Assembly (NCBI GenBank): GCA_013265495.1
Contig: PNXW01001157.1
Span: 1 to 64,000 of the forward strand
From: Vicugna vicugna
Taxonomy: Eukaryota
DNA length: 64,000 nt
Reading direction: 5' to 3'
This document shows positions 22,790 to 64,000 of the stretch, piece after piece (the first letter of the stretch is position 1; each line of letters starts with the position of its first letter). Below the pieces are notes generated by a model. That model was given only the letters and a program-made list of their open reading frames with translations, searched no databases and was not told the DNA's origin. Both the position numbers and the translations under genes were made by a program.

Positions 22790-25700
22790 TCTCAGAAGAC
22801 TCAAAAACCTTGAAAGTGGCTGAAGAAACAGAAAATACAGTGAGAGTCACCTGGAAACCAGCACCTGGGAAAGTTGTCAGCTACCGTGTTGTGTATCACC
22901 GCCATGGGGGTGGGAAACACCTGTTGGCCAAAGTGCCACGCACAGTCACCTCCAGTGTTAAAGCGGCTTCAGCCCTGGGCCAAGTATGACATCACAGTTC
23001 TCCCAGTTTATAGGACAGGAGAGGGAAATCTTAGGCAAGGATCAGCTACAACATGTATGAGATGATAATTTTTTTTTGGAAAGTGTGTAATATTTTTAAG
23101 GGAGATTTTAATGCATCTACTTTCTTTGTAAATGTCTGAAATTGATTCTGCAATGAATTGTTATAATGGCTAGATAGGATGCCTAAATAGCACATGATTT
23201 TTACCTATCTAGTTACCTGCTAAAATGATTCCACGTATTAATGTCCTCACACTAATCTAACCTTCTGAGCTGGGAGTACCGTGTACACTCCCATTTGGGC
23301 AGCGCTCTGTTGTGATGATTTTTGTTGGCTATGATGGCCTCCACTTTCTCACTTATAACCCTTTTTATAAACGTGCCTCGAAGTGTTTTGTTTGTGATGA
23401 TTCCTGTGTATCTCACTTAGATATTTTGAATTCACCTTATTATTATAGGGGCTAATAAAAAAATGCCAAAGCCTAGACTTATGAAAAATATGTGAAAATC
23501 TTACTATCTTTACAGTTCCTCAATTTAAGTCACCCAGAATCCTCAGAACTTGTGACTTAACCATGTCAAGCTTCCGGGTGTCCTGGGAGCCTGCGCCCAG
23601 GGAAGTGAAGGGTTGCAAAGTCACATTCCACCCCCAGGGAAGTTGACCGAAGACTCGGGGAGTCAGTGGTTGGATGGAATGACAGCACAGTTGTTTTCAA
23701 AGAACTCAGGTAGGAATGCCTTATATTCAGTTTTGTCAAAGGACGGAATAACTGATGCAAATTAGCAGGCCTTGCACAGATGATCACTTATGTGTCTGTT
23801 TGCCCTTTAGATATTTAAAGTCAGCCACAGCTGCTTTCTCATGCTTGGTGCTGCTGAAGTTGGGGTTCAGAGACTCAAATTTAAGAGTTGTAATTTTTTA
23901 ATGATTTTTGTTGTTAAGTGATCAGGAATGATATGTTTTCTGTAACACCTTGCTTTTAAAAAATTAACATTCATATTGCACAATTTCAACAAAAGCAGCA
24001 TGTCCCCAGCCTTCCTGTGGGAACATGGGGCTTCCTGTGCCCTCTGGACAGGCCCCGGTGCCTGCTGCTGAGATGCCAGGGCGGGCCGCGGGAGAGAGCA
24101 GGCAGGCCTCTGTGCTCCGTGTCAGCTGGCGGGATGGGGGGCTGACGCGAGGTCTCACTTCAGGCTGAGCAGTGGGAAACAAGGAGGTTCGGGTCTGAGT
24201 GGCATCCTGCATTCACTGTGGTAAAAAGAATGGACTCGTCTGCACTGCCTGGTGCAGTTTATCTGTTTAAGCCATTCATTCAACAGTATTGAAATCTCAT
24301 AAATTTCACGTAAATGCTTGCTGCTTCCTTTAATCAGAATAGGGAGTATGGAATTTATTGAGCCTCCTATGGGCCGGCACTGTGCTGCATGCCTTCTGTT
24401 CCCAGGCAGTTACATCTGTATTGTTCTGTTAGAGCCCGTTGCTTAGGAGAAGTAAGAATGCCAGCCCGATGCTCCCCTGACATGCCCAGTGCCCGCTGGG
24501 GGCTCTGCATCTGATGGGAAGCCAGGCAGGGATTGGGCACTGACCCCCAGTTTTCTCCAAATGCCTGCAGGCTAGTCTCCCTTGATACCTCACAGTGTAA
24601 GCTTAGCTAGAACGTGATGGAAATTATTTTCTCCTCTTGCAGTGTTGTGTGCTGTAACTTCCTCTGAGTGAAAGTCTGTAAATCAAGACGAGTGTTTTGA
24701 GTGAAACAAAAAAGTGCTACCGCTCAAGCCTGTCATACGTACAGAAGTTGTATTTACCATTTCAGGGCAGGCCCCAACTATGAAGGAGACGTGTATGGAA
24801 TGTTTGATGGAGGAGAAAGTTTACCACTTATTGGACAAGAAAGTAATGCCAGTTTTATCCTCTGGTAAGAAACTGAGTTGCAATCCCCTAGGAAAACTCA
24901 TTATTATAAAGCTTTTTCAAATGTGAATTGTTAGGTTAACCGTACAGTGACAATCAACTATTAAAGTTTTACACTAAAATTTACTTAAATAATTTTATAT
25001 ACTTACACATTTTTTCAAACATCCAGCTAAGCACACTTTTGCCAACATTTTTAAGGCTTTTGTCAGCACTGCATTAGTTACATAGGACTATATGATTTAA
25101 AGTTGAGTGTTTACAAATGGTAAATAATGTAGATTTTCTCTCTTTGTAGTGACTAAAATGTGGTTTTATTTTGTTAAAGTGACTAGAAATGATTTACTTG
25201 GGCTGAGCAAGCAGCCTTGGGTTACAGAAATAGGGCAGCAGCTCTGACTTGGGATGCACAGTGGTAAAAAAATGGCGTAGACTTTTCTCCTTGTGCCACA
25301 ATTACAGCTGTGAAATACTTGAAGCTAGTTTTGAACAGTCTTAGAGGTGGGAGAGGTGAGTAGAGTTTCCTTCTAAATATTTTCCATCATTTGCTAATAA
25401 AGAGAAGATGTGGGCAGAGCCGGAGCAGACGTGGAAAGGTGCAGGTGCTGGGAATAGTGCTTGGGAAGCCTCACTCCTGCCTTACTGGCCAGGACATGAG
25501 TGACGCCTTTGCAGTGTGATGAGCATCACTGAATTTTCCTCAGTGAGGTTTTTTCTTTTCCTTTTTTTGTAATATAAAAATCAGATACTAATAACATGGC
25601 AAGAAGTTGAAAAATTCATAGCTGGTAACATAAGCTTCTGGAAAAGAGAGCATTTGAAAACATGGATGACATAAATGACAGTGTCAGCTTTCTACTTTTC

Positions 25701-28137
25701 ATGGTTGTTCTGTTGTTTCTCCTGTGAGACTAGCTGACTTACATGTTTATCTTGCGGCCTGTGTGCACTGAGGCCACTGGGCACTTTTGTTTCCCGAGTG
25801 CCCAGCTCTGTCTCAGCGCTTGTGTTCATCGTCCCTGTATCTGTCCACCCTCACACTTGTTTGCATCCTTTTTCTAGATTGTCTCTTTTCTCTCTTGATT
25901 TTTTAAGTGTGCAGACTTCATCATATATATTTACCTGACTGTCATACACAGTAGATGATTAAGTTAAGTAATGAATAACTGAATAATATAATAGCTATCA
26001 GGTTTTTAAATAATATATTTTTATTTCCTAAATGTCCAATTTTAAGAGTTATGTTCCTAATCCTTCTCAAGATAGGTAATACTTAACTAGGAGCTTTCAT
26101 TAATTTAAAAGATATTTTTGGCTCACTGGAATCTTTTGCAGCTTACACATTTTGATAGTTCATCTCATACTTGTCTGCTAATGACTGTTGAATGTTGAAA
26201 AAAATGCAGGGGCATGGTAGAGCTGCATGGTAGGGCATGGGCATAGCATGCACAAGGTCCTGGGTTCAGCCCCCGGTGCCTCCATTAAAAATAAAGCAAA
26301 TAAATAAACCTACTTACCCCCAAATAAAAATAAATACTAACCCCCCAGCAGCGTATAAAGGAAAGGAAGTATGTTTAAAAAATATTGAGAAAAAGGCAAC
26401 ATCTCATTTTTAGATCATATTAAACATTTTATTAAAATTATTATTGCCTTATATTTTAACGGCTGTACATTCCCACTTACATGTATCAGCTTTTGGGTTT
26501 GTGACTTCATTCAGATTTACATGACAGTTTGTAAGTCTCCATGTTCTACAGTTGTGGCTGAGAAATAGAGTCAGAGAAGAGGGAAAGCTTTTCCATTGAA
26601 ATAGTTATTACAGGAATTGATGATTCCTGTAATTCCTAATAAGGTTAATAAGTCATAGGGGTATATTTTTGAAGTCTTAAACTCCAAATCACCTGGCTAA
26701 GCCACAGAGCTGAGACAGTTACTCGACACTGAGCACCTGGGGGTGGCAGAGGCGTGGCTAGGAAGTCACCCTACAAAGGACTTGTTCCTGACTCTGTGCT
26801 GTCTCATGATTGCTGCGTCATGGATGGAGTATCTGACCAGGGCCAAAGCAGACGTGCTGCTGGTGGACGCATTGTGGAGCCCCTGCCGGGCAGGCTTGAG
26901 GACTGTGTGGCATTTCATTTCTCGTGCTGTGGAAGTCTTTGAGCTGGGCCCCGAAAGAGTGCAGATTGGTAGGTCTGACAATATTGAAGACATTTAGACA
27001 TTTCCGATATGCTCTTTGATATACGCGGACACCAATGGTGTCACTTTAACCCTTGCTTATGATACTGGGGACCCCAGAACAGGGCAGCAGTTAAATGCTC
27101 ACAGAGACAAGCTTGTTGCAGGCTGTGGTGAACTTACCTTACAAAGGAGGCAGGACCCTCACAGGTGAGTCAAAGTGGTCTGGTGCACTGGGAGCTCTTG
27201 CTTTTTAGTCAAAGCTTGTGGTGGAATAATGATGTGATAGATTCTCTTTTAAAAATCCCCATAGGCATGGCTTTCACCAACAGAGCTTCAAGACCCAAGG
27301 TGACATGAGGCCTGGGGCCCAAAAAATTGGTGCTCTCGTCAGTGATGGAAAATCCCAAGGTGATGTTGAGGCCCCGGCAAAGCAACTCAGGGATGAAGGC
27401 GTGGAGCTGTTTGTCATTGAGAAGACTGGCTATGCCCCTGGGGCTTGCAAGTATGCTGAGGATGGTTTTGTAGTTAAAAATACTTTCTGAAGCATGGACA
27501 AAGAGTCAAACACGTTTTTCCCTGTTACATAATTTATCAAAATGCTGTGCCAGGACGTTAATTAATTTCCTTCTTTTCTCCTTGCAACGGGCCGAAACTC
27601 TGTGGCTTCTTGAAAGAGAGTAATGGGTCAAGAGGACAAATGTACTATTACAAGGACTCAGGAAAAATTTGTTTGACTTTCCACAGCGCTGTGTTTGTTT
27701 TTGATATTTGTTATTTTACTTTCCAGAAAAAACATTGAAGAGACACTTTTTGGTGGGGAACTGGTGCTAGAAGCACTTAGGAGAATCTAAACAAAACAGA
27801 TTTCGGTTAATACAATTTTTTGTTCCTATTTTATAATTAGAGATATGTAGTCATTTGATTATTGAGGAAAATCATATCTATGTCCTAGTTAACATTGAAT
27901 ATACAGGGGAAGCCCATAAAATATTGGCTTTATTCGGTTGATTTTTTTCTGAGACTTGTTTTTTAATTTGTACGCATCCATTTTTCCAAGGTATGAAAAG
28001 TGCTGACAAAGCTGAGTTAAAAATAACTGCAGCAGATCCCGGTGATCCCCACGCATGCAACGTGGCAGATTTTGCGCCCCTCTCCAGGATCGTGGGTGGC
28101 CTCACCCTTAACTTGTGTAAGAGCATCAGAGGTCCGG
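22790..28137 (+). pseudogene. COL12A1: Unprocessed partial COL12A1 pseudogene: two FN3 domains plus VWA3, 7 exons (22790-23054, 23516-23709, 24766-24864, 26822-26968, 27050-27164, 27265-27419, 27991-28137)
   Basis: Peptides [36 protein letters not shown]...[56 protein letters not shown] and NVADF..LSRIV occur in collagen XII order. Frameshifts in several exons, acceptors mutated at 26821 (CAT) and 27049 (TAA), donor lost at 27420. Confidence 0.95.
26209..26340 (+). mobile_element. tRNA-derived SINE (Vic-1-like)
   Basis: AGCATGCACAAGGTCCTGGGTTCAGCCCCC core and A-rich tail. Confidence 0.85.
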
Positions 28138-28149
28138 GTAAGGTTAGCC

Positions 28150-28370
28150 CAGGGTTTGTCACCCAAGCACTGTTGATATTTTGGTCCAGAGAGTTATTTT
28201 TTGGATGGGGGGAGTGGATTCTTTTGTGCACTGCGAGATGTTTAGCAGCATCTCTGGAGTCTGCCCAGTGGATACTGGTAGAATCCCCTGAGTCGTGACA
28301 ACTAAAAATATCTTCAGAATTTGCCACATGTCTGCTGGGGAGAATACTGCCCCCAGTTGAGAATCATTGG
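28150..28370. mobile_element. MER20 DNA transposon
   Basis: GATGTTTAGCAGCATCTCTGG...GTGACAACTAAAAATATCT...CCCCAGTTGAGAATCATTG. Confidence 0.85.
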
Positions 28371-30579
28371 TTTAGTCCCTGCCTTTTTTTTTTCCCCTGG
28401 TAGCATCAAACTATAAATGACTTCTGGGTTATTTGAGGGTACATTTTGTTTGTATATGCCTGTACCACACACATACACACACACACACACAAATGAGATT
28501 GGGGAAGGAGAGACGCCCCCTCTCCTGGCGCGTGTCTCCTTTCTGGGCAAGCGCCTTCCCTCTGTGTGGCTCCTAAGTTAACTATGAAATAGTGGTTTCC
28601 AGGTGCTATTTTCTAAAGCGTGCTCCCTCCGCATTTGGTTAGGGCTGGAAGAGGGGTCTTACGTGTGATTTGCTTTGCCCCAGCTGCTGATGACCACATT
28701 TGATACTTTGCACTTGTAACCACAAAATACAAAGACAAATTAAAATATTAGAGCTTGGACTTTTAGAAAGGATGTCCTCTCTCTCTATCAGTGAAGAAAC
28801 AGATTTAGAGAAGTTAAATTACTTACTCAGGGTCAAATGGTTAAAGATGTTTATAGAGGTCCTTGAAAAAAGGTAGCTATTGATAAGGAATTAAGATTTA
28901 TAAATAAAACTATGGAAGTGAATTTTAGTAACAAAGGATGGTGCAAAATAGTTACTCTCTGTGTAAATCATTGGACAAAAATGGTAAGTACCAAATTGAA
29001 GGTTTTCTGAAAAGTAATGATAAAAATTATGGCTCTTATTATATGAGAAAAATTTCATTTAAATATATATAGATTATGTAAAGATTGTCTTTCACTATTT
29101 CGTTCTGGTTTTGGAAAGTTAGAATGAGTTTAACAAAGTGGCAGAAATGGGTCACGTGCTTTGGGTACTGAGGATACACCTATTTGAACGTTGCTTACTG
29201 TATTTCTCTGCCAATTTGGATTTTGAACAACAGATGGACCTTTCCCCTGGAGAAACAGACCAGCCAGGAAGGCAGATAGTGTAGGTTTCTGGCTCTGGAT
29301 TAGCTGAGAGAAGTGCAGTTTTATTTAGTTGGAGGGAACTTTGAGTATGGATGAAAGTGTCTTTTATCTTTTATTCTTTATTTTTAAAAAATACCTACTG
29401 TGTAATAGTTACATTCATTTAGTTTCCCAGACTGTAAAATTGCTTGATAATTTTTTACAATAATGGTCAGGATACCAAGAACGGAAGGGTTTTTTTTTCC
29501 CAGCTTTGGCTTACAAAGGAAGTAGAACAGGTTTACATGAGAATGAAAGACATGCTCATGGAGTCATTGGATCAATTCTCCTGTAATTATTATTTAGGAT
29601 ATCTTTCTAATGGTCATATTGAACTGAGTGTTTCTACTTTCATTAATATTTACTCTAAGTATTTTTCTGTATTAGTCATTTCACCTATACTGGTCTCCAC
29701 AGAGAAAACAATCACAGGCAGTAGAATCTTCTCAAGTTTTAGAAAATGTGGTGGTTCTTCCTCTGTCTTAATGAGAAAATGGTTAGCTGCTTTTATTACT
29801 GACTTACATCTTGACAGGGAACTAGACATGAGTAAGAAAGCAGTTCTGTCCTCACAGAGTGTAACTTAGAGTTAAGGGGATGAGACGTGAATATAAATGG
29901 TCAAAATGATAATGAGGGCAGTGAGCTTGGGTGGTGCCAGTAGCGACAGGGGCAGTGGGACTGTCAGGATCCCAGATGTCACTCACTGATGCATGTCCCA
30001 GGTTAGAGAGAGGAGAAAGTATTCAAGGGTGACTCAGAGGTTCTGAGCTCTAGGTGACTGATAAACTTCTGGTGCCATCTGGAAGATGGGGAGCAAGTTT
30101 TAATGAGAGACAGTGAGCTCAGGGTTGAGTCTTAAGAGGCTGAGGAACAACTCCTTTGATCGTCCATTCAGAGAGGACTTCTGGGCATTGGGCCTCTAAA
30201 CTGATTTACTGTAACTTAGTATGTTTGTAGTCCCTAAGATTTCCTGTGAACTTTTAGGCACATCCAAAATGCGTTCCTAATGGTTGGTTTGTTTTGCAGT
30301 TGTGCTTGTGAAAGCTGTACTAGTCTCTTGATCTCAGTGGGCCTTTTCATTGTAATGATTAGAAACAAATTTTTTGATGGCTCTGGGTTTTGTGTATTTG
30401 GCTTGGTTACCAGGAGATAGAGAAATAATTGACAGTGAAAGCTCCAAACTGCTGGCAGACATTCCAGATGGCTTGAGCTGCAAACTAACTAGACTGCTGG
30501 TCACAAAACTAACACGTTGGGTAAGTTAGTGAACATGTATTGCCTTTTTTTCTCTATGCTTAGAAGCTAGTTTCCTCTG

Positions 30580-30669
30580 TGGGAAGGTTATAGCTCAGTG
30601 GTAGATAGAATGCGTGCTTAGCATGCAGGGGTTCCTGGGTTCAATCCCCAGTACCTCCATTAAAAAAAA
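30580..30669 (+). mobile_element. tRNA-derived SINE (Vic-1-like)
   Basis: TATAGCTCAGTGGTAGA...CCTGGGTTCAATCCCCAGTACCTCC plus A tail. Confidence 0.9.
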
Positions 30670-33600
30670 CAGGTCACAGAATACTCTGAGTTGTCTAGAT
30701 TTAAATATTATATCCATTACTTTTTAAGTGTTTTACTCTTGCCACCTGTCTTCATATATATCCCAACCACACCCAGCTTTTCTTCCAGAAAATGCTCCAA
30801 CTTTCTGAAATTCTTTTCTGCTACTTTATTTTACAGAGATATCCATGAATGGCAATAGATGCATATGTGTATTTAAAATTTACATTGGTAAATATTCTCA
30901 TTCACGTATCTTTAACTTCATTTGATAGATGGCGTATCAGCTTTCAATTTAGGAGTAGAGGAAGATGCAGAATCCTCTTCTCATTTGGAGGTACTGTTCT
31001 ATCATTATCATTATTATTATTATTTAGAAGTATAAACTGTGAGTTATATTAACACATAAATGAAGGGATTCTCTGAGGTTAGTTACTCACCTTTGCACTT
31101 GCCCATCCAAACTTCCTCTTATGTTTTCTAGTCCACCATTACGAGCTTCATTGTATGCAGGGTGTCATGCCAGTGCCTAGTACACTCTGTGAGGTTTCCA
31201 GTCTCACCTAATGAAACCAGTGTATGTAGCACAAAAAGCAGTGTTGAGAAGTCCTATGGAATCAACTTGGCTTCTTGAGTTTTTTCTCTAAAAAGTAAAG
31301 AACTATTCTTTTTCAACCTGTGACCAATTGTGTGTTTCTTTTGTATAAATGGATGTGTCAGACTCCAGGCAGGTGTAGAGAAAAATAGGTTGGATTAAAA
31401 AGAAGAGTGTTTTCATGTTGTGTTTTGCTTTGTGTTTTTGCCATATTGACCTTGAAAAGCAAATGCCTGTGAAATGGAATTATTATAGTTTCCTTGTCAT
31501 AGATCTGCAGGGACTATTTCACGAGAACCAGAAGCATGGTGGAGGGTGATAAATATGTGGGGTCAGTGTACCAACAGTTTGGGTGAGTGATGTTTTAATG
31601 AAGAGAACCCCTTTTTGATAGTTTTTGTGGCCTGCATGTTGCACTTTGATAATGACCATAGTTGAAGTACTGTAAGTAACAGTGATGACATGTTCAAAGC
31701 TGATGGCTGTGGGGAGAGGTAAGGAGGCCCAGAGCTCTTGGATCTGGAGAACTGCTGCCTAGTGGCCCAGCAGTGTGTGTGAAGTCAACAGATACGTTGG
31801 CATGCACTAGCTGTGGGGTCTTGGAAAAACTTGTTGGAGCTAGTTTGAATGTCAGCAACCTTGTTGGTAAAATGGTACTGATACCTCTGAGATATGTGCA
31901 ATGAACAAACATGGTAACAAATGTGAAAACATGTTGTCGTGTGTAAGTGGTGCTGTAGGGGGTGAGACAGAATGATCACTGGCAATGCATGGCTATGTGT
32001 TTAGGACACTTTTTTGACACCTGAAAGACAATAAATGACACTGGAGTTAAGCATGGGAAAGTCAGAGCGAGCACATGGATTTCTCACTTGGGGTGTGTCA
32101 CGTTTCAGTGGACTTAATGCAGATCTCTGATAAGTACAGAGTGCTTTGGTACTTGAGGCCAACTTGAGATTTTAGATGTTTTGACCTTAAAGAAATTCCT
32201 TCTCCTGAACACCCACTGTGTGCCGGGCAGTTAGACACTGAACATACCAGGTGAGGGGTGAGGCTGTGGGGGTGGAAACAGAAGAACCAGTGAACAGGAA
32301 TTCTCTGTCAGTCACAGTGAGTCCTTCAGGTAAAGAAAATGGAAAAACTTCAGTTTTTTATGAAAGTTATGAAAGTGGGTGATTTTAGCTAGGATCGGGG
32401 TGGGGTAAGAGTGGAACTTACTAGTCGGCACAGATCAGAGTGTGACCACAGCTGCCAAGGAAAGGATGGGATGGAGCCACTCACATGATGGCCCAGGGGA
32501 GGGCTCTTCTGGACTGAGAACAGGGGGTCACATCTGTTTATCGTTGGACCCCAGCACCTTAGAGTGACCAGGAAGCAGCAAGTGGGTAACCGTCCTTACA
32601 ACCATTTTTATTGTTGTTGTTTGTAGGAAAGAAGACGTGCACAGTGAGGGCCTGGCATATGCGGGGGGTTAGGAAATAAATGTCCTCATCCTTCCCTTAT
32701 GGCAGTCCCTGTGCTTTTTTGAGGAATTGCGTATCTACATTTAAAGTTTTGCTGTTATTAAAACAGCATTTTTCTTACTACTTTGCTACTTTATTCAACT
32801 AGTTTTCCTAACTGTAAAAGTTTTATCAAATAATAGATTGTGCTAAGCTACTGCTTACTGAAATGAAGCAGCTTCTACAGTGTTCTGTCAGTACTCAGTG
32901 TGATAGACTCCAAGGTTTGTTTCATGCCAAGGATCTCATTTTAATACTAAATCCGTATCTGTCCTTAGAAATATTTTAAATTTATAGCAATATACTTACT
33001 AAAATATTTGTTTAAAAATAAGTGTATTTTAAATTTTACTTTTTTATTGAAGTATAGTCAGTTTACAATGTTAGTTTCATGTGTACAGCAAAGCAATTCA
33101 GCTTTACCTACAAAAATAGGTATTTTTAAAAATGTCTTCCTTTTTGTGGGGGAATTCAACATGAAGTTAGGTGTTTTGAAGTTAATTCTTTGTTGAAATG
33201 TGAATATAAGTCAGTGTTTTGCATGTGAAAATACTTGCTCTGGCTTTCCATGTTCAGTTTACTGAATCAAAAGCCAAATGAAGAAAAAAGATAGACTAGA
33301 TCTAGAAAATGTATATGAAATTTTCTATTTAAATGTTTGGTTTCCCAAGATATTCTTCTCTTATTTTAAGTCTAATTGCTTTTAAAATAGGAATTTTTTT
33401 TAAAAAGTTAGAAAATGCAGGGATTTTCTTAGCAAGGGATTAGGAAATCTTTATTCAACTCATTATTAATATTGATTTTAACAGAGTATCTCTGAGAGTC
33501 GACCACAGAGGTATGTGGATATTTCATCTGGAGCTGCAGGTCAAATGGAGGAAAATATATTAAGTGGACAAATAGAAGGTAAGAGCTGTATTTTATTAAA

Positions 33601-35417
33601 AAGTCTTTTGATAGGATGTTGATTTCAAACATGAATTCAGATATATTCTAAAAGCCAAAGAAAATCACCTGGTGAAGGTATAGTGAGGAAAAAGGTGAGA
33701 AATGGAGGCAAGTTACATAACTTAGGTGTCCACAGCGAATTAGACTGAGGGTGCCGTTTAAGGAGCTATGTTGTTAGTTTCACTTCAAGGTCCTCTGCCA
33801 CCTAAGGACAATCAGGAGGTAAGGAGGAGGGAAAGAGGGGAAGAAGAATGAGCGAGGCAGAGAGGACAGGCAGTAAGTGAAAGGAAGGGAGGGGCCTGTG
33901 GGGAATGGTGGGAAGGCAGAGCAGTTCTTTGGAAAGAGGAAGAGTGTCTGAAATGTGAGATGGATCTGAAGTGAGCTTCCAGCACCACAGCTTGTCCGAG
34001 AAACACGAATGTTCCCACTGTCCCCGTCCTCCTCATTGTTAGGAGGGCAGTGGGGGCTGAGGTGCCTGATCACGCAGAGCTGGGTTCTCCCTGCCGTGGT
34101 TGAACACAGGCAGGTGTGGGCAGCTGTAAATTTCTGGACCTTCATGTCATGTGGTGTGTTGCTGCCTTATAGGATGGTGTCACCTCGGCCAAGAGAAGAG
34201 AATAAGGAAGAGGAAGAGAGCAGGGTGTGTTACGGGGGAGGGGAGGGGCGGGGGGGGGGTCTGTGAAGCTGTTTCCTGATTAAGAGTCCGTTAGAATGTG
34301 TGCAACTTCTAGTGCAGTTTCAGGTTGGGGAAGCGTTACAGTGGGCACTTGAGGCTAGATTTCAGAAGGATCAATTATGTCAAGTAGACTTGGTATAGAC
34401 CAGAATTTCTCAAATTGTAATTAGTCACCCAGGGACTGGGTGAAAAATGCATGTTCTGATCAGCAGGCCTGAGATTTTGCATTTCTAAGAAGTTCTAAGG
34501 TGACACCCTTGTTACTGGTCTTGAGGCCATGCTCAGAGCAGCAAGAGGGTAGACGTGTGTTTAGAGAAATCTGGAAGAGCCCCTGGAGAGCTCACGATGT
34601 AACAGCATCAGGAAAAGTGTGGTTTTGTTTTCCTGTCTGAGCACGTTTATAGCCAGAGGGAGGCAAAGAGTTGAAGTAGAAATTACCCATGTAAGGTACT
34701 GTGATCAAGCAGAGAGGAAAAAGAAGTGGTGGGGGTCATCCATCCAAAGAATCCAGAAGGGGAAGAGTTACGACCACAGATCTAGGGATCCCTTTGAAGA
34801 GGGGAGGATGCAGTGAAAGGAAGGAAGGAGGAGAAGAAGCAGTAGGTAGCTGATGTAGGAATTGATGAGGAAACTTGAGAGAACTCCTTCTAGATGGCAT
34901 CATGTATTTGCACTGAAGCAAGATTAGGTCATTGACACTGCAGAGAATTCTGGAAGCAGGAAGGGGCTGGAACTAGGCAAACCACAGCCACTGCTCACAA
35001 CTATCAGGCATCAAGGATGTATGTTGCCTTGGTATTTGTTATTCAGATGAGATTAGTTTGAATATGGAAGCACTGGATGTTTGTTAGTTTTTTTTTTTTT
35101 TAGGATAGCTAATTTTTTGATACTATGGTTGTTTCACAGAAAGCCTTTTAAACATTAGCATTAGATACCAAACCAAACTAATTTTGAAAACAAAAGAAAT
35201 TAATAGGGTTCATTCCCTAAAAGCTCAAATTGTTTTCAGTAAATACTACAGTGGTTTTGAAGTATAAAAGACTTTTAATGTCTAATAATCCTGTGGCAAT
35301 TAAATTTATTTTTTTCCTTTTTTGATAATCATATTTCAATGTGGAAAATTTAATATACATTATTTCTTAGGTGTGTCTTATATATCTTCTTGCACGAGAG
35401 GATCAAGAAACTTTGAG

Positions 35418-37197
35418 ATGACAACCAAGACCACGTCCACCCCGACAGCATGGGCCGCTCTCTGCTCCACCTTTACCACCGGGCTGCACCACCACCAGTT
35501 TGCCATGGGTAATGACATTGCTGCGCTTGTGGTTGACAGTGGCTCCAGCATGTGCAAGGCTGGCTTTGCAGGCGATGATGCCCCCCGGGCCATCTTTCCC
35601 TCCATCATGGGACGCCCACGGTACCAGGGCGTCATGGTGGGCACGGGCCAGAAAGACTCCTACTTGGGTGATGAGGCCCAGAGCAAGAGAGGCATCCTGA
35701 CCCTCAAGTACCCCACTGAGCATGGCATTGTCACCAACTGGGACGACATGGAGAAGATCTGTCACCACACCTTCTATAATGAGCTACGTGTGGCCCCTGA
35801 GGAGCACCCCATGCTCCTGACTGAGGCCCCCCTGAGCCCCAAGGTGAACTGTGAGAAGATGACCCAGATCATGTCTGAGGCCTTCAACACCCCAGCCATG
35901 TACGTGGCCATCCAGGCCGTGCTGTCCCTGTACACCTCTGGCTGCACCACTGGCATTGTGGTGGACTCTGGTGATGGAGTCACTCACACTGTGCCCACCT
36001 ATGAAGGGTATGCTCTCCCCCACGTCATCCTGCATCTGGACCTGGCTGGCTGGGACCTGACAGACTACATCATGAAGATCCTCACGGAGCGTGGCTACAG
36101 GTTCACCACCACGGCCGAGTGGGAGATCGTGCATGACATCAAGGAGAAGCCCTGCTACATCGCCCTGGACTTGCAGGAGATGGCCGCCACCGCCTCCAGC
36201 TCCTGCCTGGAGAAGAGCTATGAGCTGCCCGATGGTCAGGTCATCACCGTCGGCAGCGAGCGCTTCTGCTGCCCCGAGGCTCTCTTCCAGCCCACCTTCC
36301 TGGGCCTGGAAGCCTGTGGCATCCACGAGACTACCCTCAACTCCATATGAAGTGTGATGTGGACATCCGCAAGGACCTCTACACCAACACGGTGCTGTCT
36401 GGCGGGACCACCATCTACCCCGGCATCACCAGCAGGATGCAGAAGGAGCTCACCGCCCTGGCCCCCAGCATGGTGAAGGTCAAGATCATCGTGACCCCCG
36501 AGCTCAAGTACTCCATGTAATGGGCGGCTCCATCCTGGCCTCGCTGCCCACCTTCCAGCAGATGTGGATCAGCAGGCAGGACTATGACGAGTCCAGCCCC
36601 TCCATCGTCCACTGCAAGTGCTTCTAGGCGGACTGAGTTACTGTCCATCGTTCTCTTGACAAAAACCTAACTTCAGTGGAAAAGGAGATGAGTGGCATAG
36701 CTTTATTTTGTTTTGTTTTTTAATTTTCTTTAATATTTTTTCTCTTTTTGGTACTTGACTCAGGATTTAAAAACAGTGAAGGTGATAGCAGTCAGTTGGA
36801 TTGAGCATCCCCAAAATTCTACCTTGTGGCCGAGGACTTTGTACATTCTTTTAAATAGTCATCACAAATATTGTGAGATGCATTGTTACCGGAATTCCCT
36901 TGCCTTTCCAAAACTACCCGACTTCTCTAAGGAGAAGGGCCAGTCCTCGCACAAGTCCACAAGGGAGGGTGGTAGCATTGCTTTTGTGTAAGTGATGTTC
37001 TCCAAATGAAAAAAGATTACCTTAATACTTGTTTTTGTTTTATTTGGAATGGTCAGACCCCCTTTTTTGTCCCCAAACTTGAGATGTATGAAGGCTTTTG
37101 GTTCTGGTGAGAGTGGGTTGAGGCATGGAGGCAGCCAGGGCTTATCTGTACACTGACTTGAGACCAGTTCAATAAAGTGCACACCTTAAAAAAAAAA
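35418..37197 (+). pseudogene. ACTB: Processed beta-actin retrocopy (5' UTR, CDS 35505-36627, 3' UTR, poly-A)
   Basis: Intronless actin CDS; ACTB-type 3' UTR (TAGGCGGACTG...GACTTGAGACCAGTT.AATAAAGTGCACACCTT); A tail; TSD AAACTTT(G/A)AG. A 1-nt deletion gives TGA at 36348-36350 and there is a second lesion near 36518. Confidence 0.97.
37171..37176 (+). terminator. AATAAA polyadenylation signal of the ACTB retrocopy
   Basis: AATAAA 11 nt upstream of the A tail starting at 37188. Confidence 0.85.
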
Positions 37198-37902
37198 GAA
37201 AAACTTTAAGTGGGTTAAGCTAGAGGATACAAGAAATGTAGGCACACCAGTAGCCCACATGGGTGTGGGAAAAAAATGAACATTTTAATGAACTATTCTC
37301 CAAGTGTGTCGCCAAGCTGATCAACTCATAGCACTCTCTCTGATGAGGAGTGAATTACATATTCAAATAAAGTGTCATCACAACTGTGGACTTCCTAAAT
37401 TACAGGGCGAATTGAAAAACCTGATGCATCCTTGTAGTCTGATGGTGTCAACTGCATTAAATATGTGCTGCTGCGTTAGTCTCCTTGGAGTCATGATTTA
37501 TTCTGATTAAAGCTCACTTTTCTCATCAATCAGCATGTTCCCATTGGTATATGTGCAATTTTCTATTTTATAAACTCATTTGGAACATAATCATACTTTT
37601 GAAATCTTAACTGCATGTTCTGTTAAACCTATATTCCTGTTTTTATTCATTATCTGTAATGGATTCATGTTTCTGTCTTGTTGCTGTCTTAACTGCCCCT
37701 CAAAAACAAAACACCAAAACCTAACGTGTTCATTTCCAAAGCAAGTGTGAGGGTTACACTCATTCCTAACTCTGCATGACTGTACAGTTGGCTTTTGTGT
37801 TTACATGTCATTGGTTATGTGTCCCTTTAGTCTTTCAGATTCTACTGGAGAATATCCTCACTTGAAGGTAAGAACTTTTATAATTTTACCTTGAATTTTT
37901 TA

Positions 37903-37961
37903 GTGGGGGTACTGGGAATTGAACCCAGGACCTCGTGCGTGCTAAGCAGGCACCCTCCCCC
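37903..37961 (-). mobile_element. tRNA-derived SINE, internally deleted
   Basis: GGTACTGGGAATTGAACCCAGGACCTCGTGCGTGCTAAGC. Confidence 0.85.
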
Positions 37962-38535
37962 CTTGAATTATTACTATAGATTATATCAAGTGTACATTAT
38001 TTATTACTCTTTGTTTCAAAACCCATTCAGCTACAGTTGGAGTGAGATTCTGTTCCTAATAAAACAGGAGGGGTGAAGGATTTACAAACATCCAGATCAG
38101 GTAAACTTTGCAATACAAATTTAACTCTGAAAAGAAGTGCACTAAAATATTTAAAATGTTCACTGTCTTCTCATTTCTAATTCCTTCTTTTTTTTTTCAA
38201 ATTTAATTGAAAGATTTGACATAAATAAGACACGTTATTGTTACTATCCATGTTTGGGAAAATATATTCATAAGCATAAGAAAAAGATTTTTAAAATATA
38301 AGCTTTAACTCAGAAGTTTCCATTTATGTTGGGATACACTAAAGTGCTCAGTTTGGAATCCCTACACTACTTAGGGATTCTGAGAGATTATTAGTCGCTA
38401 AGATTTTTTTCCAGTGTTTTAAAATGCTTAATTGAATTCTGAGCTTTATGTAGAGTAAAGCTTCACTTGCTAACATGTCGATTGTATTTCAACTTTAATT
38501 ATTTCATTTTAGTGTTATTACATTGATGATATATA

Positions 38536-38621: not shown

Positions 38622-41161
38622 TTCTCAAGGAGATTTTCTGAAATAAATGTTTTACTCATATACAGAGAGCAAAATGCATTTGTTTAATTTTTGCCAGTAG
38701 CATTTTTACAAGACATTACAACAGAAGCACTTTCTTCATTTTATGTATTTAAGATTCTGTGCTAAAAAATTATTAGCATAGAACAGACCTTAACATTTTA
38801 GTTTTATAAAAGCGCAAGAATGGAAACCTCATTTTAAGGAAAAATCCATTAAAGTTAAAAAAAAAAACTGACTAAACTTTTCTAAAGGGCAGTTTTTCTA
38901 AGAATTGCAAGATAATGCATTTAGTGTAAAATATGACTTGAATTGTTTAATCTATAAAATATGAAATTATATGTATTCAATAGGACAATATTTATTGTAC
39001 TTTTCATCAGATGAATCTAAATAGCATTATATATATATATATATATATTCTCTATTATCTAAAACCAAAATAAGTAGAAATTTATTTTATTTTATTCATG
39101 TGTTTTTTTTTTTCTATTTAAGCAGTCTCCAAGTTGGATCTAGTCTCTAAAAGTATTATTTAAAAGTCACATTTTATAAGCTAGCTCTCATTCCCATGAT
39201 ACTGTCTCTTGTTTAATTTAAACATTATAAATATTATTTGACTTATTTCAGATGCAGCAGGAGTTGGAAAAAATATAACTAGAGAACTAGAAGAAGATAC
39301 ATTGCCAAAATTTATGAATTACATTTAGACATTGATTTCTGAAATAAACTGTAAATAGTAAATAGCATCTCTTTCCATTGTTTGAATAACAGACACTATG
39401 TTACATTTTTTCTTATCCATACCTAATGAAAAATGTGAAAACAAAAGCATTCATAATGAAAAATATACTTATTCCTCATTTATTCATAATGACCCATAGC
39501 TTTAAAAAATAATCTCAAGAAGCCTGTGTTCTCTGTTCATTTCTGGCTGTATCCTCCCTCTCCTCCTGCTGTCCCTGTGGGGCTGTCACCCTACACACTG
39601 ACACTGTTCTCAGAAAACCTGGAGGTCATCAGCTTCTTGAGTTTCTGGTAGTGAAATGAGGCCAAAAACCCAGACTCAAGCAATCACAGTCTATGTAGCT
39701 GCCACTGGTGGGTGACAATTAAATTTCCTGTCATTGACTTTGTCATTGGTTAATCTTTTGCCCTCAGGGAAAATTCCAAATTCCTTAGTTTGGAATAAAA
39801 AACACATCAATTTGGTTCTTGCCAAAGTGTTCAGATGTATCTCTTTACTCCCCTGCTCTGCTGCTTTGCCCCAGCGTCTGGCCCAGCTAGACTGCTTCCG
39901 GTTCCACATGTGCCCTTCCCTGCCTCTAGCTTTTGTATTTGCTTCTTCCCTCTCCCTCCCACACTTTGTCCTCTTCCTTCAGGTATCTGCTTACATATCA
40001 CCGCCACCAAAAGGGGGCAATATTGGCACAAAGCTCGATGTCCCTTCTAAGTGTTCCCGTTGTGCCCCCTTTTATACCTGCTGTGGTGTTTATGACTCTG
40101 TATGGAAGTTGCCTGTTTTTCCAGTTTATGGTATGTGATTCTTCAGGGTGGACTTTGTCATCTTCATCTTGCAGTTCCAGTGCTTCACACAGTGTCTCAG
40201 CACATGGTTGTTGAGCCAATGAATAAAGAATGAGAAAACCAGCAGCTCCAATACTTAGCCACACGAGCAGGTAATGATTCAATGCGCAGCCCTGGGCAGA
40301 TTCTAGAATCGTCATCTTGCATTTTGTATTGTACTCATATATAGATACTTTTCATTCTTTTTAACACTTAGAAAGGTCTCAGCTTTTAAAAAAACTAACG
40401 TATATTTAGTTACCTATGAAGTATTTTAGATAAAGAATCTTAATTCTTTTTCTTTCCAGTTGCTGCTGAACTTGAATCTGGGTCCTGTAGAGCTTCTCCT
40501 GTAGGATCCACAGCAGCGCATGGGGAAGCCGCTCTGGACAGCTTTGTGTGGGGTCTGGAGGCTTCCTCTCTCAGCTCTGGGTGTCTCTGTTGCTAACCCT
40601 TCCTAGCTGTCTGGCCGCCGGAAACCCACTCCACATGTTGTGCCCTGAAGATGGGTTCTGTTTGTAACTCACTTCTACTCCTTGGAAAACAATTCCATAA
40701 AAATTCAATTGGTTTTCGCCCAGCTGTGGGCAGGGATGAGAAATAGCATATTATTAGTTTATAAAAGATATAAATAATAAAAGAAGTCATAGAACAGCCC
40801 TGGGCACAGCAGAGAGTCAGTGATGCCTCCCGGCCTAAAGCAGAAGTGATGGCTCAGTGTTCCGTGGCTCCCAGGCGTGCTGGGCTGCTTACTCCTTTCC
40901 TCCCTTACACTTTTTTCTTTTTTTACTAAGAAAGAAATATGTACATATGGTAAAAAATTCAAACAGAGCACAGAAATACACAAAGGAAAGGTTTCCTTCA
41001 TCCTCTGTTGTCTCAGCCCTCCCTGGAGGTGTCACTGTTTACAATCCTTTGTGTGTTTTTCCAAATAGGCTGTGCACATTCCAACCTATGCATGTAAGTT
41101 CCTTTAACATTTTACTTATTTTTAACCTAAAGGAATTTAAATCCTTAAGTGGCTTCTGCCC

Positions 41162-42019: not shown

Positions 42020-42170
42020 TCTTCACAACATACAAGGGAGTGGTATTATTCATACCATTTTGAATATGAGGAAACTGAGAATCAGGAAGACAAGGTAACT
42101 TATTCAGCGTCACCAGGCCTGGAAGTGGAGGGGCTGGGATGAATCAAGGTCTGTCTGATGTCAGAGTTCA
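42020..42170. mobile_element. MIR SINE remnant
   Basis: CCATTTTGAATATGAGGAAACTGAG core; similar remnants near 50590-50770 and 62300-62500. Confidence 0.7.
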
Positions 42171-48800: not shown

Positions 48801-49579
48801 CATCTAAAACAAGTGCCACCACTCCACTATTGCTCATTTTTGCCATGATGGAATATGGGCCTTAGAGAAGCCTTAAATATGGATTTCAATGGAGAATTTC
48901 TTTATCTTTGAAATACTGGGCTTGCCAATCAAAAAACATCTGCAGGCTTCATGTGTGGTCCTTGAGCTACTGGCTTGGTAACGTGTGGTTTGCGTCTTAT
49001 TATTCTAAGTGACTAAGCAGAAGGTACCCAGACTCAAAGAAAACATTCTAGTGTAGTTTGGATCCAGTCTTAAGTGGGGGAGAAAATCTCTTAAGGTGAC
49101 TTTGGGTCTCAGGCGCTGTGAAGGCCTCGCTATTCATGCCCTTGCAGGATGCCAGGGAGAGACGTGAAGGCGGGGCCTCAAGGCCGTCTCCTGAAAACAC
49201 CACTGTGGTTAGGAAGCCCGGGGAAAGATGGTTCCACTGGCAGCGGAGAGGACTGGCAGGATGAAAGGCTGGCCTGCAGGGCTTGTTCTTCTTTCTTTTT
49301 CTTTTTGGCAGTGAAGGGTCATCATCTTTATCTGCATTGGACACGATATTTAAAATATGAGTCTTGCCAGTTCTGAGAAGAGAAGTGCTCCCAAACCTGC
49401 ATATACCCAGCACTCTCTTCTCCAAACACAAAGGAGCCCACAGCATTTCTCAGAGGGATGCTCAGCTGACAGCGCTGAAGGCAGCCCCCGCCAGGGCCAG
49501 TGTGACAGTAATGAGAACCAGGAGACCCACAACGTCTTCTTCCTGTAGTTCTGGGCTCCGTGAGGTCTTGTTCAAGTGC

Positions 49580-49990
49580 TGCCTTCTAGCAAGCCTCGAC
49601 CCTCCAGCCCGCCGCCCAGCTGGCCGCCCTCGCTGCTCCGCAGCTGCCGCTCGTCCTCGGGCTGCGCGGCGCTCGCGGGGGAGCCCGGCCGGCCGGGCCG
49701 GGAGGCTGCCAAGGGCGCGTGGCCGCTGGCGGAGGCGGGCCCGCAGGGCCCGGGGTGGGGGGATGCGGCGCTCGCTGCCCAGCCGGCTCCACTGCGCGGG
49801 GCGGCGGATCCCGGCAGCGAAGATGAGCCCCGTCAGAAGTGCGAGGCCCAGCGGCTGGGAGCGAGTGGAGGGACGGACCGAGGGCGGGCGGGCGCCCGGA
49901 GCGGAGGTGCGGGCTGCAGGGGGAAGGAGGGGGTTGGTGCGCGTCTGCAGGACTTACTTTCCGGAAGTTTTCTCGGGCTCTCCGCCACTC
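49580..49990. promoter_or_regulatory. CpG island with GC boxes and an ETS motif
   Basis: Very GC- and CpG-rich ~400 bp in AT-rich surroundings; GGGCGG boxes; CCGGAAGT at 49961-49968. Confidence 0.75.
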
Positions 49991-52846
49991 CTTTTGAACA
50001 GCAAAGATGCCTAAAAGGATCTCAAATCATTTATTCTTCACTCATTGAATAAACAAAATTGACTACGTATTTTAAATAGGTCTGTACCAGCACTATGTTA
50101 AATGCAGAGCATGCGAAGTTGAATACAGCAGGGTGTCTGCGCTCTAAAGGTTTATAATCTGGTAAACACCTTGATTATCTGTTAATACATTAGTGATAAC
50201 AACCAACTGTAAGCATTAACAACAAGATAGTCCCTTGGTTTTCCAGGAGTATGGAAGGGAATGCTTATGGCGAACTTAGATTCTAGGGAAAATTAACCTT
50301 CTCCTGTCTCACCATGCTGCCAAAAGCTAGGATGGGCTGGCGCTGGCTATCCAGCAGGCAGATTAAACATCCAGTTAAGACATCAGGGGGCAGGGTCATG
50401 GAAATGGAGATACAAATATAAAAATTGATATTAAAATAAAATTTACATTAAATAAATCATCTAAGCATGGGAAAAATCAAAATTTAGTTGAAAGTCCTTG
50501 CAATTATCTTTTGGTTTAATTTCTTTCTTTCTTTTTTTAAATGAGACATCGAGGGAGCTGGCCATGAGTGTCAGGATAGCACAGTAATGTTAGAGGCAGA
50601 TTGCCTAGTTTTGAATCTGACTTTGCCACTTACTGTGTGTCTTTGGACATTTAGCTTCTGTGTGCCTCAGTTTTCTCATTCGTGAATTGGGATGATGATA
50701 GTATATGCTAATGTAATAAAGTGTTTAGAACAATTTCTGGCATCCAATAAGCATAATCCAAATGTTGGCTATGATTATGACCCCTGAAAGTCTTATCTGG
50801 CTGTAGCTCTGGCGTATCACTGTCTTACATGCTATGTTTGACACACTTGCTAGGAAAAGACATGCTAAATATTTTTACCTTCAGACACTAATGCAGGAGA
50901 TGCCTCCTTGCCTGGCCCTCTTACACCTGTTGTGGAAGGGCAAGAGATTGGAATGAATACTGAGACCAGCACTTCTAGGGAAAAAGAGCTCCCTCCCCTG
51001 TCTGGCCTCCCTTCTAAGGTAGGTAGCATGTAAGTCTGGCCCAGCTACACTAACTTCCTTTCTTTTGACTTTTTTTTAAAATATGCATGTTGCTAATTTC
51101 TTGCTTCTATTTTTTTTGATTATGTAAATAAGATCTTCAGTTTTCAAAGTAATTTCTGCTAGGTGTGGTGTCCCCTAATTTTTTGTATTCAGAATAATTT
51201 AAATGAGATGATTTTGTTGAAATTGCTTTGTCCTATTTCTAAGTTTTAGGGTCTTTCTTAAAGAGTATCATTTTTATTAAGGCTGAGATGTGAATTACAG
51301 ACAAAATTTATTAAGAAACAGATGTAGGTTAAAGTGACACCTATAAAGTCATTACATCAAACAGAACCTTGAAGACTCTTCAGTTTGCTCTAAATCATGG
51401 TACATCCTCATTCCAAGAGCCTGGGCAGGTGTGTAGACTTTTGCTGACACTGTTAAAGAAAAATGCAGATGTCGATTACCAGCTTAATACATTTTGAACT
51501 TTCCTAATTCTTTGTCTTGAAGACATTGCATGTCTGGATGTCTGGGATGAGTGTGTACACAAAGTAGTGTTATTGTGTTATTAAAGAGTTGAAGGAGGGA
51601 ACATTTCACATCTATGATAATCTTAACAAGAAACATTCTATTCAAAACAGATTTTATTTAGAAATTGTTCATAATTATCTTGAGAAGTAAGATTTTCCTA
51701 CACAGGCCAGTGTGTGTGTGTGTGTGTGTGTTTGTTGTTAGTTGTATTAAAACTAGATCAGTCATTCACTGGTAAAGATGTTTAATGACTTTTTTTCAAA
51801 CTAACTCTCACATATGATCTAGCAATTGATTTATTGGATGAACACATGACTGCACTGAGAAATAGTGCCAAAAAAGTGGCACACACTAGATGACTCTGCA
51901 GCTAATAAAATATAACAAACTCCCCACCCCTAGCTTGAATATCTCTTTCCCATAACTTTCTCCATCTTATGAAGGTATTTTCATTGTCTTCCATTCAGTA
52001 AGCCCATCTGCTACCTTTAGTTCTAAAATTAATTTTGATGGTGGCAGAACTTTCTCGCTGTGCTTGAGGTGGCCTGTGTGATTAACAATTGAATTTGCTG
52101 ATACAGATTGCTAACCAGTATGGCTTATGGCTTCAGTGCTTTTTTGATAAGATAACAGTAGAAGAAATGCTTTTGGTGAAGATAGTGATACAGAACTGAG
52201 ATCAGATTTTAGGAACTCCCAGGTGTTCAGCATTTAGTCTGTCAGATGAATAGAGACTTTTGGAACTTCAAGATTAAATCTATGACCTGGAATCCAGAAT
52301 TCAGGTAATACCTTCTTTTTGCCTTTTTCTTTTAAATAATGTTATCATTTGTGACAGGTTGTGGAAAATATCTTATACATACTGTCTCTTCACATGACTT
52401 ATTTTCAAGTTTTCATCAATTAAGATGCTTGTGTAATTCTGTACATATTTAAGAGATGGTCATGTGCTGGTGCAATGACTCTTATAACCCATTATTGCAG
52501 GACTTTGATTGCATAAAATAAAATAATTTACCTAAGTAGGCCTTATGATTTAAGTGATGCAGAACTTCTAAAATGTAATTTCCTCTGGTTAGAAAAATCA
52601 GGCACATGAAGTTTAGTTACATTTAGTTCTCACTTTCAAGTAGGAATCACTGTAAGCCCATTCTGAGCATCCTGCTTTCTAATTCTTTAGTGTTTTTTTC
52701 CTTATTAGTATAACTAGCCAAGGACAGCAAAATTTCATTTCTTTCCAATTAAAGTTTATTACCACTATACACAAAAATCAGTCTTAAATTGTTAGTTACA
52801 TAGCCATCATTCAAGAATATTTTTTAACCAAAATTTATATAGCTAA

Positions 52847-61600: not shown

Positions 61601-62734
61601 GCACGCCATCACTGCTTTTACTGTTTCACACTGTGTCCCTTTGCTTAAAAAATGAGACAAGGAGCAGTATGGATTTAATTACTATTACTTGGAAAGACTT
61701 CTTAAAGTCAGAGAAAAAAAATTAAAGTAGTTTCATGATACAGCTACTGAAGTAAAGCTTTGTTTTTTTTTTTCTCCCAGCTCAGAGGCATAATCAACCC
61801 ACTTCCAGCTTCAAAAGGAATTGGAATGCCCCACTTCGGTGTGTGCACGTAGCTGAAGGGCACACACAGCTGTGCTCTGTGTGAGGGCTACTGATGCTCT
61901 TCTCTTCACTGGATCAAAGGTACTGGTTGTTGTGTCATGTGGGTACATAACAGATCTTTTAAAAAATGATTACGTTGAGCTGGTTTTGAAAAAAATGTCA
62001 AACTGCTTAAGATTCATAGGAATCTGAGAGATAATCTGGTTCAATCCCTGAATTATATAAAATACAAAATCACTGCATGGTTGGTAAGAAAGTAAAACCT
62101 CTTTTGATGCACTGTGAGTAGAATGGCACGGGGATACATCTCTCTATGGTAATTGAGCATCTAATGCATGCAAAGCCCTGAGCTTAGTAATGCAGGCTGC
62201 GTAAAAATCTATGAAAGGCCATTGCAGAATACAGTGTGACAGAGAGAGTAAGGTGGGTAGCGGCCACCATTTCTTGAGCAGTCCCTGTATGTCAGAGGCT
62301 GTACTGGACAGTATGCAAATTACATCTCACTTATTTCTCACAACAACCCCAATGACGTACATATTGCATCCTCATTTTACAGATGAAAAAATTGAAAATT
62401 TAAGAAGTTAAATAATTTCCCCAGCTACACTTAGAAAGTGGAGGAGCCAGGATTGGAAACCTAGGTCTACTCGTCTCCAAACCTGCACTCTTAACCCCTT
62501 TGGTAAAATGGCAGGCAACTAAAAAAATCAACTATAAATGATTGGAAAATTTATAGACTAGGTTTTGGGGTTTCAGAAAAGGGAGAGATTATGCCAAGCT
62601 GTAAAAAATAAGGAAAGCTTTGATAAGGAGGTGTTTAAGATGAGTCTTACAGGATTGTTGCTATTGACAGGTAAGGACAGGCAACTAAGGTCAGAGAAGA
62701 GCAGAAGCAGAGACGTGGAGGCAGATGTGGATTT

Positions 62735-62846: not shown

Positions 62847-64000
62847 TCCTTAAAAAAAAAAAAAAAGGAATTTGGAAATTAAATCCTATTGAGTTGAAAT
62901 GTAGAATATACATGACAATGGGCAATGAGACTAGGAAGGTGAGAAGGAAGCATGTATAAGAATTTGGGGAGCTAGTTAAAGATTTTTAGCATTTAGGGAT
63001 GTTCCAAGACTCAGTTTAATCAGAAAAATTTTTGCTCATTTTCTATGAGGGAAATAAAAGAGTTTAGCTTATGCGTTGTTAATAATTGCAAGCAATTCCC
63101 CTATTAAAAAAAATTTACTCTACAAAAACATAATTTTCTAATGATTCAAGTTAAATTGATTTCTCCAGTATAATTACACATTCAGCATGTCAGAAAAACA
63201 AAATAAAATAGTTTTGTGATTATGTTTTTTGAGTCAAAGATAAAATCCATCCATAAGTGACTCCTGGAAAGAAACGTATGTGTATTTATGAGTATGGAGT
63301 GTTGTCAGGAGGTAAGAGCAGATTTTGAAATGGCTGATTTAGGATGGCTGTTTAAAATTCAGGGGCAATTTGGAGCAAGACTCTTTTCACATATCTATTT
63401 CAAAATTTTGTGTAATTACTTTTTTAATACCGTGTGATGCATCCCTAGCTTTCATCCAATCCTTTACACCTGCTTTGCCCTTGAACCTGTGGCAAGTTAG
63501 AAGTTAGGAGTTAGGATGCCTGTTTCAGGTTAATGGAATAATTACTGTTTCCTTATCTATTTTTTTCTCATAAAAGTCTAATTTAGTTCATATTGACAGT
63601 ATTGCCTCTTTTTTTTGTTTTAGATTGTACTTTTAAAGTATGGAATCTGGTGACTGGGCAGGAGATAATATCACTGAGGGGTCATCCCATCAATGTCATA
63701 TCTGTAAAATACTATAATTATACAAGTTTGGCCTTCACAGCATCAGCATCTTATATTAAGTTGTGGGATATCAGAGACTCAGCAAAGTGCATTCAAGTGC
63801 TAATGTAAGTAACTTAAAGAGAAGCAGCATAAGGGGCAAATAGCCCTTGTTTATAAATATGAGAAAAGATAGGTCTGTGAATGCATTTTTGTTTATTTAT
63901 ACCTGTCTACTTGCAAGTAACATTACAGTGTTTACAGTAAGAATGCCAATAAAGTAAGGTTTAAAAACCTTTTGAGAAAATAATATATAAAAGCTCAATA

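Follow-up and report, generated by a model that had tools for sequence, protein, structure and literature searches.

The POTE genes derive from ANKRD26, and in the ancestor of Old World monkeys and apes a beta-actin retrogene became fused in frame to this lineage (PMC7073761). ANKRD26 itself maps to human 10p; groups of its homologs sit at mammalian evolutionary breakpoints and at centromeres, with an over-expansion in both primates and artiodactyls (PMC4141111). Cattle carry an ANKRD26 duplication block, block G (PMC2796684). Segmental duplications are defined as tracts of more than 1 kb with at least 90% DNA identity to another copy (PMC2935423), and a core duplicon family by a core that recurs from block to block, NPIP, GOLGA8 and TBC1D3 being among the human examples (PMC6920530). 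Here we describe a stretch of 64,000 nucleotides from Vicugna vicugna (contig PNXW01001157.1, positions 1 to 64,000; hereafter, the window), in which a piece of ANKRD26 interrupted by a beta-actin retrocopy lies between pieces of COL12A1 and KIF21A. An initial annotation had taken the three for a duplication mosaic. Such a mosaic, which is most likely real, would by itself be one more ANKRD26-centred duplication block, of a kind already known; what appears to be new is that the same ANKRD26-actin junction recurs in full-length predicted proteins of alpaca and three Camelus species.

Results

A beta-actin retrocopy in frame within a fragment of ANKRD26

The central module lies on the + strand, as do all features below unless stated otherwise. 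Its first ANKRD26-derived exon, at 30,929-30,990, is bounded by AG/GT, runs from phase 1 to phase 0, aligns to ANKRD26 and agrees at 18 of 21 residues with the alpaca fusion model P0235; the second, at 33,485-33,578, has an open frame and matches the region of ANKRD26 residues 423-459 at 62-65%. There follows the 5' half of an exon (35,371-35,424; ANKRD26 residues 456-472, or 451-467 in a whale), which ends in the left copy of a target site and runs in frame into the actin retrocopy, and on the other side of the insert, at 37,198-37,261, the right target-site copy with the 3' half of the interrupted exon, taken up again at ~37,199 (whale ANKRD26 residues 462-482). Two more exons, at 37,839-37,867 and ~38,020-38,100 (the latter frameshifted), encode ANKRD26 residues 504-521. 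Taken together, the exons from 30,929 to 38,100 match alpaca ANKRD26 (P0211) over residues ~410-521 and then skip to the last two exons of the gene (39,252-40,513), the first with a frameshift and a dead donor (alpaca residues ~1659-1667 at 39,269-39,295), the second breaking off near 40,513 (whale residues 1658-1674 at 40,462-40,512). With ~1,130 codons lost internally and an extra junction at 38.1-39.2 kb, the ANKRD26 piece consists of two fragments. Residues 1-400 were not found in the window, and intact ANKRD26 is present elsewhere in camelids (alpaca P0211, dromedary P0212).

The insert, at 35,425-37,197, has cytoplasmic actin 1 as its best PDB match and yields the Pfam Actin family in three frames. 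It comprises a coding sequence (35,505-36,627), a 3' untranslated region with AATAAA at 37,171 and a poly(A) tract of ten adenines (37,188-37,197); the coding sequence contains no introns, and whale ANKRD26 residues 462-467 are encoded on both flanks, a decayed target-site duplication that, with the other features, identifies a processed retrocopy. A single open reading frame, 35,304-36,350, leads from the ANKRD26 half-exon through a linker of 27 codons, provided by the untranslated leader of actin, into beta-actin, which remains in frame for 281 codons before the first of two frameshifts (near 36,347 and 36,518); there is also a one-codon deletion. Among the substitutions are G15S, R183W and R206W, which we presume to lie at the actin nucleotide cleft. 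With these lesions, this copy of the fusion is dead, and the locus is a non-coding relic. The real chimera here is ANKRD26-actin, born by retroinsertion and not at the junctions of the mosaic.

A camelid family of predicted ANKRD26-actin proteins

A query with the exon that begins at 33,485 led to P0151, an alpaca model in which the same exon is spliced onto the same junction and followed by full actin. The P0151 cluster has eight alpaca members: six of 443 residues, identical at 428-442 positions, one of 3,126 residues and an older one of 404; seven distinct recent alpaca models can be told apart, six of them on one 61-Mb contig. A search with the junction region, which covered proteins of up to 1,718 residues, returned 48 proteins, among them six clusters with an actin domain, all camelid, while the other 42 were ANKRD26-type proteins without actin from whales, pigs, a deer and camelids. 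In view of this result, the junction peptide had given a false negative when proteins of 610-2000 residues were searched with it (none of 25 candidates held); a metagenome scan with that peptide gave 596 pattern matches, none of them confirmed, and the ESM Atlas offered no usable match for residues 1-42 of P0151. Fusion models occur in alpaca, Camelus ferus, C. bactrianus and C. dromedarius, and each Camelus species has two lineages, A and B, on contigs of different size.

In a tree of 17 fusion models and the window copy, lineage A (alpaca and camels) is supported at 100/100 and lineage B (camels and alpaca P0233) at 84/84, and P0235 groups with the window copy at 86/88. The ANKRD26 parts of the window and of the fusion models group together in a single clade, to the exclusion of true ANKRD26 (100/99), and residues 16-128 of P0235 align to ANKRD26 residues 359-471 with 54% identity (E 2e-28). 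By hand count, lineage A differs from beta-actin by 34 substitutions and one deletion and lineage B by 35 substitutions over residues 3-375; 18 substitutions are common to A and B, and the window keeps 16 of these, which argues for a single actin insertion event. Since lineage A has both alpaca and camel members, the insertion seems to predate the split of camels and South American camelids; the split of the camelid tribes is put at 11-25 million years (PMC4884201). The window protein is 87-88% identical to its nearest paralog, and its actin differs from every retrieved paralog at no fewer than 42 of ~371 residues, so that it can be told apart from them.

The intact models have one more upstream ANKRD26 exon and long N-termini, both absent from the window; COL12A1 would therefore occupy here the place of the partners of other copies. 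At the protein level, the same junction is preceded by COL12A1 in the window and by different N-termini in P0163, P0168 and P0169, and the models point to two or three paralogous lineages of the fusion with other upstream partners. The dromedary model P0214, a short and diverged version of the junction, is a dead relative.

Several features of the models deserve mention in their own right. P0163 (alpaca XP_072793893.1; 3,126 residues) contains ~40 near-identical units of 64 residues ahead of the ANKRD26-actin core; the lineage-A models of camels have about one such unit, and the array therefore appears to be a young coding tandem array. The N-termini of P0168, P0169, P0232 and P0236 contain coiled-coil and proline-rich segments. 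We take them to be MIA3/TANGO1-like, an assumption that Pfam and PDB searches on the fusion N-termini did not confirm, yielding weak coiled-coil matches only; were it correct, the intact fusion genes would be three-parent chimeras. Within an intron of the window, seven codons at 32,625-32,645 exactly match a small predicted exon of the dromedary model P0236, and the window therefore seems to share this intron with lineage B.

Rates of change and constraint

Protein-level comparisons indicate that the window copy has changed faster than its intact paralogs. With lineage A as the outgroup, its actin shows 33 changes against 7 in P0233 (p=4e-5), and the comparison with P0169 gives 29 against 10 (p=0.003). 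Its private changes are also harsher (28 changes with a mean BLOSUM62 score of -0.50, compared with 39 changes among five intact representatives; p=0.004). Within lineage A, alpaca and camel differ at 19 of 374 actin positions, against 9 of 70 positions derived from ANKRD26 (p=0.027); in true ANKRD26, one of 70 differs. Because the dead copy outpaced an intact one by 33 to 7, partial constraint on the intact paralogs is likely, not proven.

Several observations weigh against our reading of the family and of its history. These members are automatic gene models, known as predicted proteins alone, and the near-identical alpaca models might in part be haplotypes or assembly duplicates. The pairing of alpaca with camels in lineage B, at 84/84, is weak. 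The rate comparison of the window with P0235 is borderline (26:13, p=0.053; 26:10, p=0.011 with another outgroup). Intactness is itself ascertained, given that only open frames enter protein databases; the intact copies are ~9-10% diverged from beta-actin, and, of the private changes, 5 of 12 are radical in the alpaca members of lineage A and 4 of 13 in P0235. The last three points, along with the existence of dead relatives (the window copy and P0214) and the fact that actin retrocopies are common, would fit a scenario in which the mosaic is real and the ANKRD26-actin family is untranslated duplication debris evolving neutrally, its open frames being the few that by chance survived in a large set of copies. 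What speaks against such debris is the slower and milder change in the intact lineages, the openness of two lineages in both camelid tribes and the fact that in the models several ANKRD26 exons are spliced to actin without a break in frame. We regard neutral debris as a serious possibility, if on the whole an unlikely one.

The flanking COL12A1 and KIF21A modules

Upstream of the fusion lies an internal fragment of COL12A1 (22,790-28,137) with seven exon blocks, at 22,790-23,054, 23,516-~23,708, 24,766-24,842, ~26,810-26,968, ~27,051-27,164, ~27,265-27,420 and 27,991-28,137. It encodes two FN3 domains and one vWA domain (Pfam fn3/VWA). The blocks are colinear with residues 942-~1320 of shark COL12A1 (P0004), the order in fish COL12A1 also agrees (tblastn), and a 65-residue exon frame retrieved named COL12A1 representatives. 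Exons 1, 2, 5 and 6 are frameshifted. Five COL12A1-type queries matched nothing in the window beyond 22.8-28.2 kb, and the fragment therefore lacks both ends; the initial annotation, in which each of the three fragments lacked its 5' end, is thus extended for COL12A1.

Dromedary has another decayed piece of COL12A1 (P0041, on a 0.98-Mb contig), which extends over the same FN3 and vWA domains and is ~60-70% identical to the piece in the window. Given P0041, the COL12A1 block itself seems to be multi-copy or old. We also take COL12A1 to lie within ~2 Mb of a breakpoint at 13 Mb of cattle chromosome 9, which may hint at how COL12A1 and ANKRD26 met. That bovid breakpoint is included in Figure 7 of PMC4141111, which marks ANKRD26 homologs.

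Downstream, a 3' fragment of KIF21A with ~9 exons extends over 42,263-63,804 and reaches the end of the window. Three exons are identified by matches to human KIF21A chains in PDB: 48,030-48,070 (5YAY, E 1e-5), 61,781-61,919 (7KLJ residues 28-47) and 63,624-63,804 (7KLJ residues 50-107, 110.8 bits in one stretch). Six further exon calls combine splice sites with what we take to be the KIF21A protein. The first exon contains an in-frame stop, and later exons contain frameshifts.

One intron of this module holds, on the - strand, a CpG-rich retrocopy-like insert (49,465-50,000; 74% GC and a CpG observed/expected ratio of 0.87 over 49,560-50,000), so that two modules contain such inserts, the other being the beta-actin copy in ANKRD26. 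We assume that it resembles the 5' part and N-terminus of TMEM163, a likeness that no tool confirmed and that seems to end after what would be the first transmembrane segment; Pfam and the ESM Atlas gave no usable match for its frame. With its unusually preserved CpGs, the insert could be a candidate orphan promoter. The exon at ~50,884, downstream of it, seems to lack its 5' part, presumably the rest of the KANK-binding peptide.

Junctions, assembly and read-through

The exon matches and splice sites bear out the earlier description of three intron-bearing fragments on the + strand, and with exon blocks bounded by AG/GT and kilobase-long introns all three modules are unprocessed copies. In humans COL12A1, ANKRD26 and KIF21A lie on chromosomes 6, 10 and 12. 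Native adjacency of the three genes in camelids was rejected, because truncated, frameshifted pieces less than 3 kb apart cannot be working genes. The COL12A1/ANKRD26 junction, which had been placed near 28.4-33.4 kb, falls somewhere in 28,138-30,900, a narrower interval between the last COL12A1 exon and the ANKRD26 exon at 30,929-30,990. The ANKRD26/KIF21A junction falls within 40,514-42,262, as deduced from the flanking exons. That the whole is a duplication mosaic with an ANKRD26-family core gains support from the intact ANKRD26 elsewhere, the separate camelid clade and P0041.

The order of the modules might instead be a misassembly joining paralogous, repeat-rich contigs: the core is multi-copy, a setting in which assemblers misjoin, and the order rests on the assembly. 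Arguing for a genuine order, the window contains no N, the last ANKRD26 exon is broken in mid-exon in the manner of an old breakpoint, and the copy differs at so many actin residues from every retrieved paralog. Moreover, 63-73% of 1,063 words sampled from the junction-containing 10 kb (28,001-38,000) were found in 20 DNA runs from eight studies and three organisms (seven studies once that of the best-matching run is set aside); one study may be the source of the window itself. This 10-kb sequence thus exists in other animals. It counts against our reading of the block, nonetheless, that shared words attest the presence of the sequence and not the adjacency of its modules, which is known from the assembly alone. 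All told, we consider a misassembly unlikely.

The initial annotation further held that the shared orientation would allow read-through chimeric splicing, that is, a transcribed COL12A1-ANKRD26-(actin)-KIF21A chimera. Most splice sites are indeed still AG/GT, and the two that would meet, a COL12A1 donor at 28,137 and an ANKRD26 acceptor at 30,929, are both in phase 1 and hence compatible. On the other side, chance alone would put three modules on one strand in one case out of four, which led us to reject co-orientation as evidence; frameshifts affect four of the seven COL12A1 exons, actin carries two, and KIF21A has its stop and frameshifts; the actin stop codon and AATAAA precede KIF21A; at 38,100 ANKRD26 has a phase-1 donor, which mismatches both candidate acceptors of KIF21A (phase 0 or 2 by our reading), and the penultimate ANKRD26 donor is dead. 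No CpG island lies upstream of the modules (observed/expected ratio 0.13 over 1-22,700), the lone island being that inside the KIF21A piece. No RNA run is listed among those with the words from 28,001-38,000, a result uninformative on expression. Read-through thus finds no support here: a transcribed chimera is quite improbable, and one that codes across all three modules is very unlikely.

Conceivably, the KIF21A or COL12A1 piece could also be what a chromosome breakpoint left of the original gene, which would imply gene loss in place of duplication. Intact camelid KIF21A and COL12A1 were not among the proteins retrieved, a further point on the debit side of the duplication block, and the KIF21A piece runs off the window. 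Both are, however, conserved single-copy mammalian genes, and the second decayed COL12A1 block in dromedary points to duplication; we give gene loss next to no weight.

The remainder of the window, 1-22,700, is an AT-rich flank that appears rich in long interspersed elements (LINE) and long terminal repeat (LTR) sequences. Pfam had no match for any of the 69 frames without a stop that were compared with it (63 frames of 48 or more residues from 1-10.8 kb and six from 20.8-22.7 kb); the interval of 10.8-20.8 kb, outside that scan, looks L1-rich by eye. A fourth module upstream of COL12A1 may exist. A repeat search, covering all but a short stretch near 29 kb, found no long repeat marking any junction, only dispersed copies resembling LINEs and short interspersed elements (SINEs). 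Short tRNA-like SINE copies gave seven matches in the window; these, and the closest protein matches, which come from Vicugna pacos and Camelus, indicate a camelid.

Discussion

In our judgement, the window is probably a duplication block of old camelid origin that formed around a core of ANKRD26 and actin. A mid-gene piece of ANKRD26 was duplicated as DNA, as its introns and the intact parent elsewhere show. A full beta-actin mRNA copy then inserted into an exon of this piece, the leader of actin keeping the frame open; the lack of introns, the poly(A) and the duplicated target codons show as much, with L1 the probable agent. Trees and shared substitutions suggest that the core was then copied to several loci before the camel and South American camelid split, 11-25 million years ago. 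At least two copies would have kept an open frame and, as the models show, gained other upstream exons, probably under partial purifying selection, and one lineage would have been amplified recently in alpaca. Additional duplication or rearrangement would have placed COL12A1 upstream of the copy in the window and KIF21A downstream of it; the mechanism was probably template switching or homology-driven recombination in a region rich in duplications. The lesions of this copy testify to its decay.

A bolder proposition is that camelids independently evolved a working POTE-actin analogue, a core duplicon older than the split, shuffling its upstream partners, translated (most likely in testis) and amplifying in alpaca, where one copy has acquired a very long tandem array of the 64-residue unit, and of which the window would be a dead block with captured COL12A1 and KIF21A flanks. 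The case for and against this fuller scenario seems to us evenly balanced. In the open literature we found no camelid ANKRD26-actin fusion and no mention of this mosaic; most subscription papers and supplements lie beyond this coverage, and among the latter the homolog tables of PMC4141111 may bear on novelty. In practice, ANKRD26-actin copies can mislead both the mapping of actin reads and the annotation of actin genes in camelid genomes.

The ANKRD26 duplications of PMC4141111 and PMC2796684 resemble the window in that ANKRD26 copies take part in mosaic duplications in an artiodactyl; they differ in concerning cattle, goat and other mammals, and in PMC4141111 the words "camel" and "actin" occur 0 times. 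Core duplicons (PMC6920530) share with the camelid family a common core with different flanks, new domains and perhaps also recent amplification largely on one chromosome (in alpaca lineage A), whereas the camelid family is non-primate and, as a whole, spread over several contigs.

In architecture the camelid family parallels POTE-actin (POTEE, POTEF, POTEI and POTEJ; PMC7073761): both families are ANKRD26-derived, carry a C-terminal in-frame beta-actin retrogene and spread by segmental duplication, with some copies losing the actin frame. In contrast to POTE-actin, the camelid insertion lies in the exon for ANKRD26 residues ~462-467, only ~70-115 ANKRD26 residues are kept, the actin leader is predicted to be translated as a linker, and the N-termini come from other sequence. 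POTE has N-terminal cysteine-rich repeats and 5-7 ankyrin repeats; in the eight camelid fusion models scanned, Pfam detected no ankyrin family, Actin being the sole family above the cut-off, barring a low-complexity Galanin score in P0163. Membership in POTE was accordingly rejected, there being no ankyrin repeats, another lineage and another insertion site, with the actin-bearing six of 48 matches all camelid. POTE-actin has been treated as a primate innovation; the camelid fusion, if true, would mean that an ANKRD26 duplicate captured beta-actin in frame a second time, independently, and that one pair of parent genes gave birth to a new gene more than once. The camelid product, open in two tribes, would have gone unnoticed behind the name 'actin, cytoplasmic 1-like'. 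It would then offer a natural comparison for the role of such fusions and for why ANKRD26 copies seed duplication hubs. By its predicted proteins, the camelid family is POTE-actin-like in architecture without being a member of POTE.

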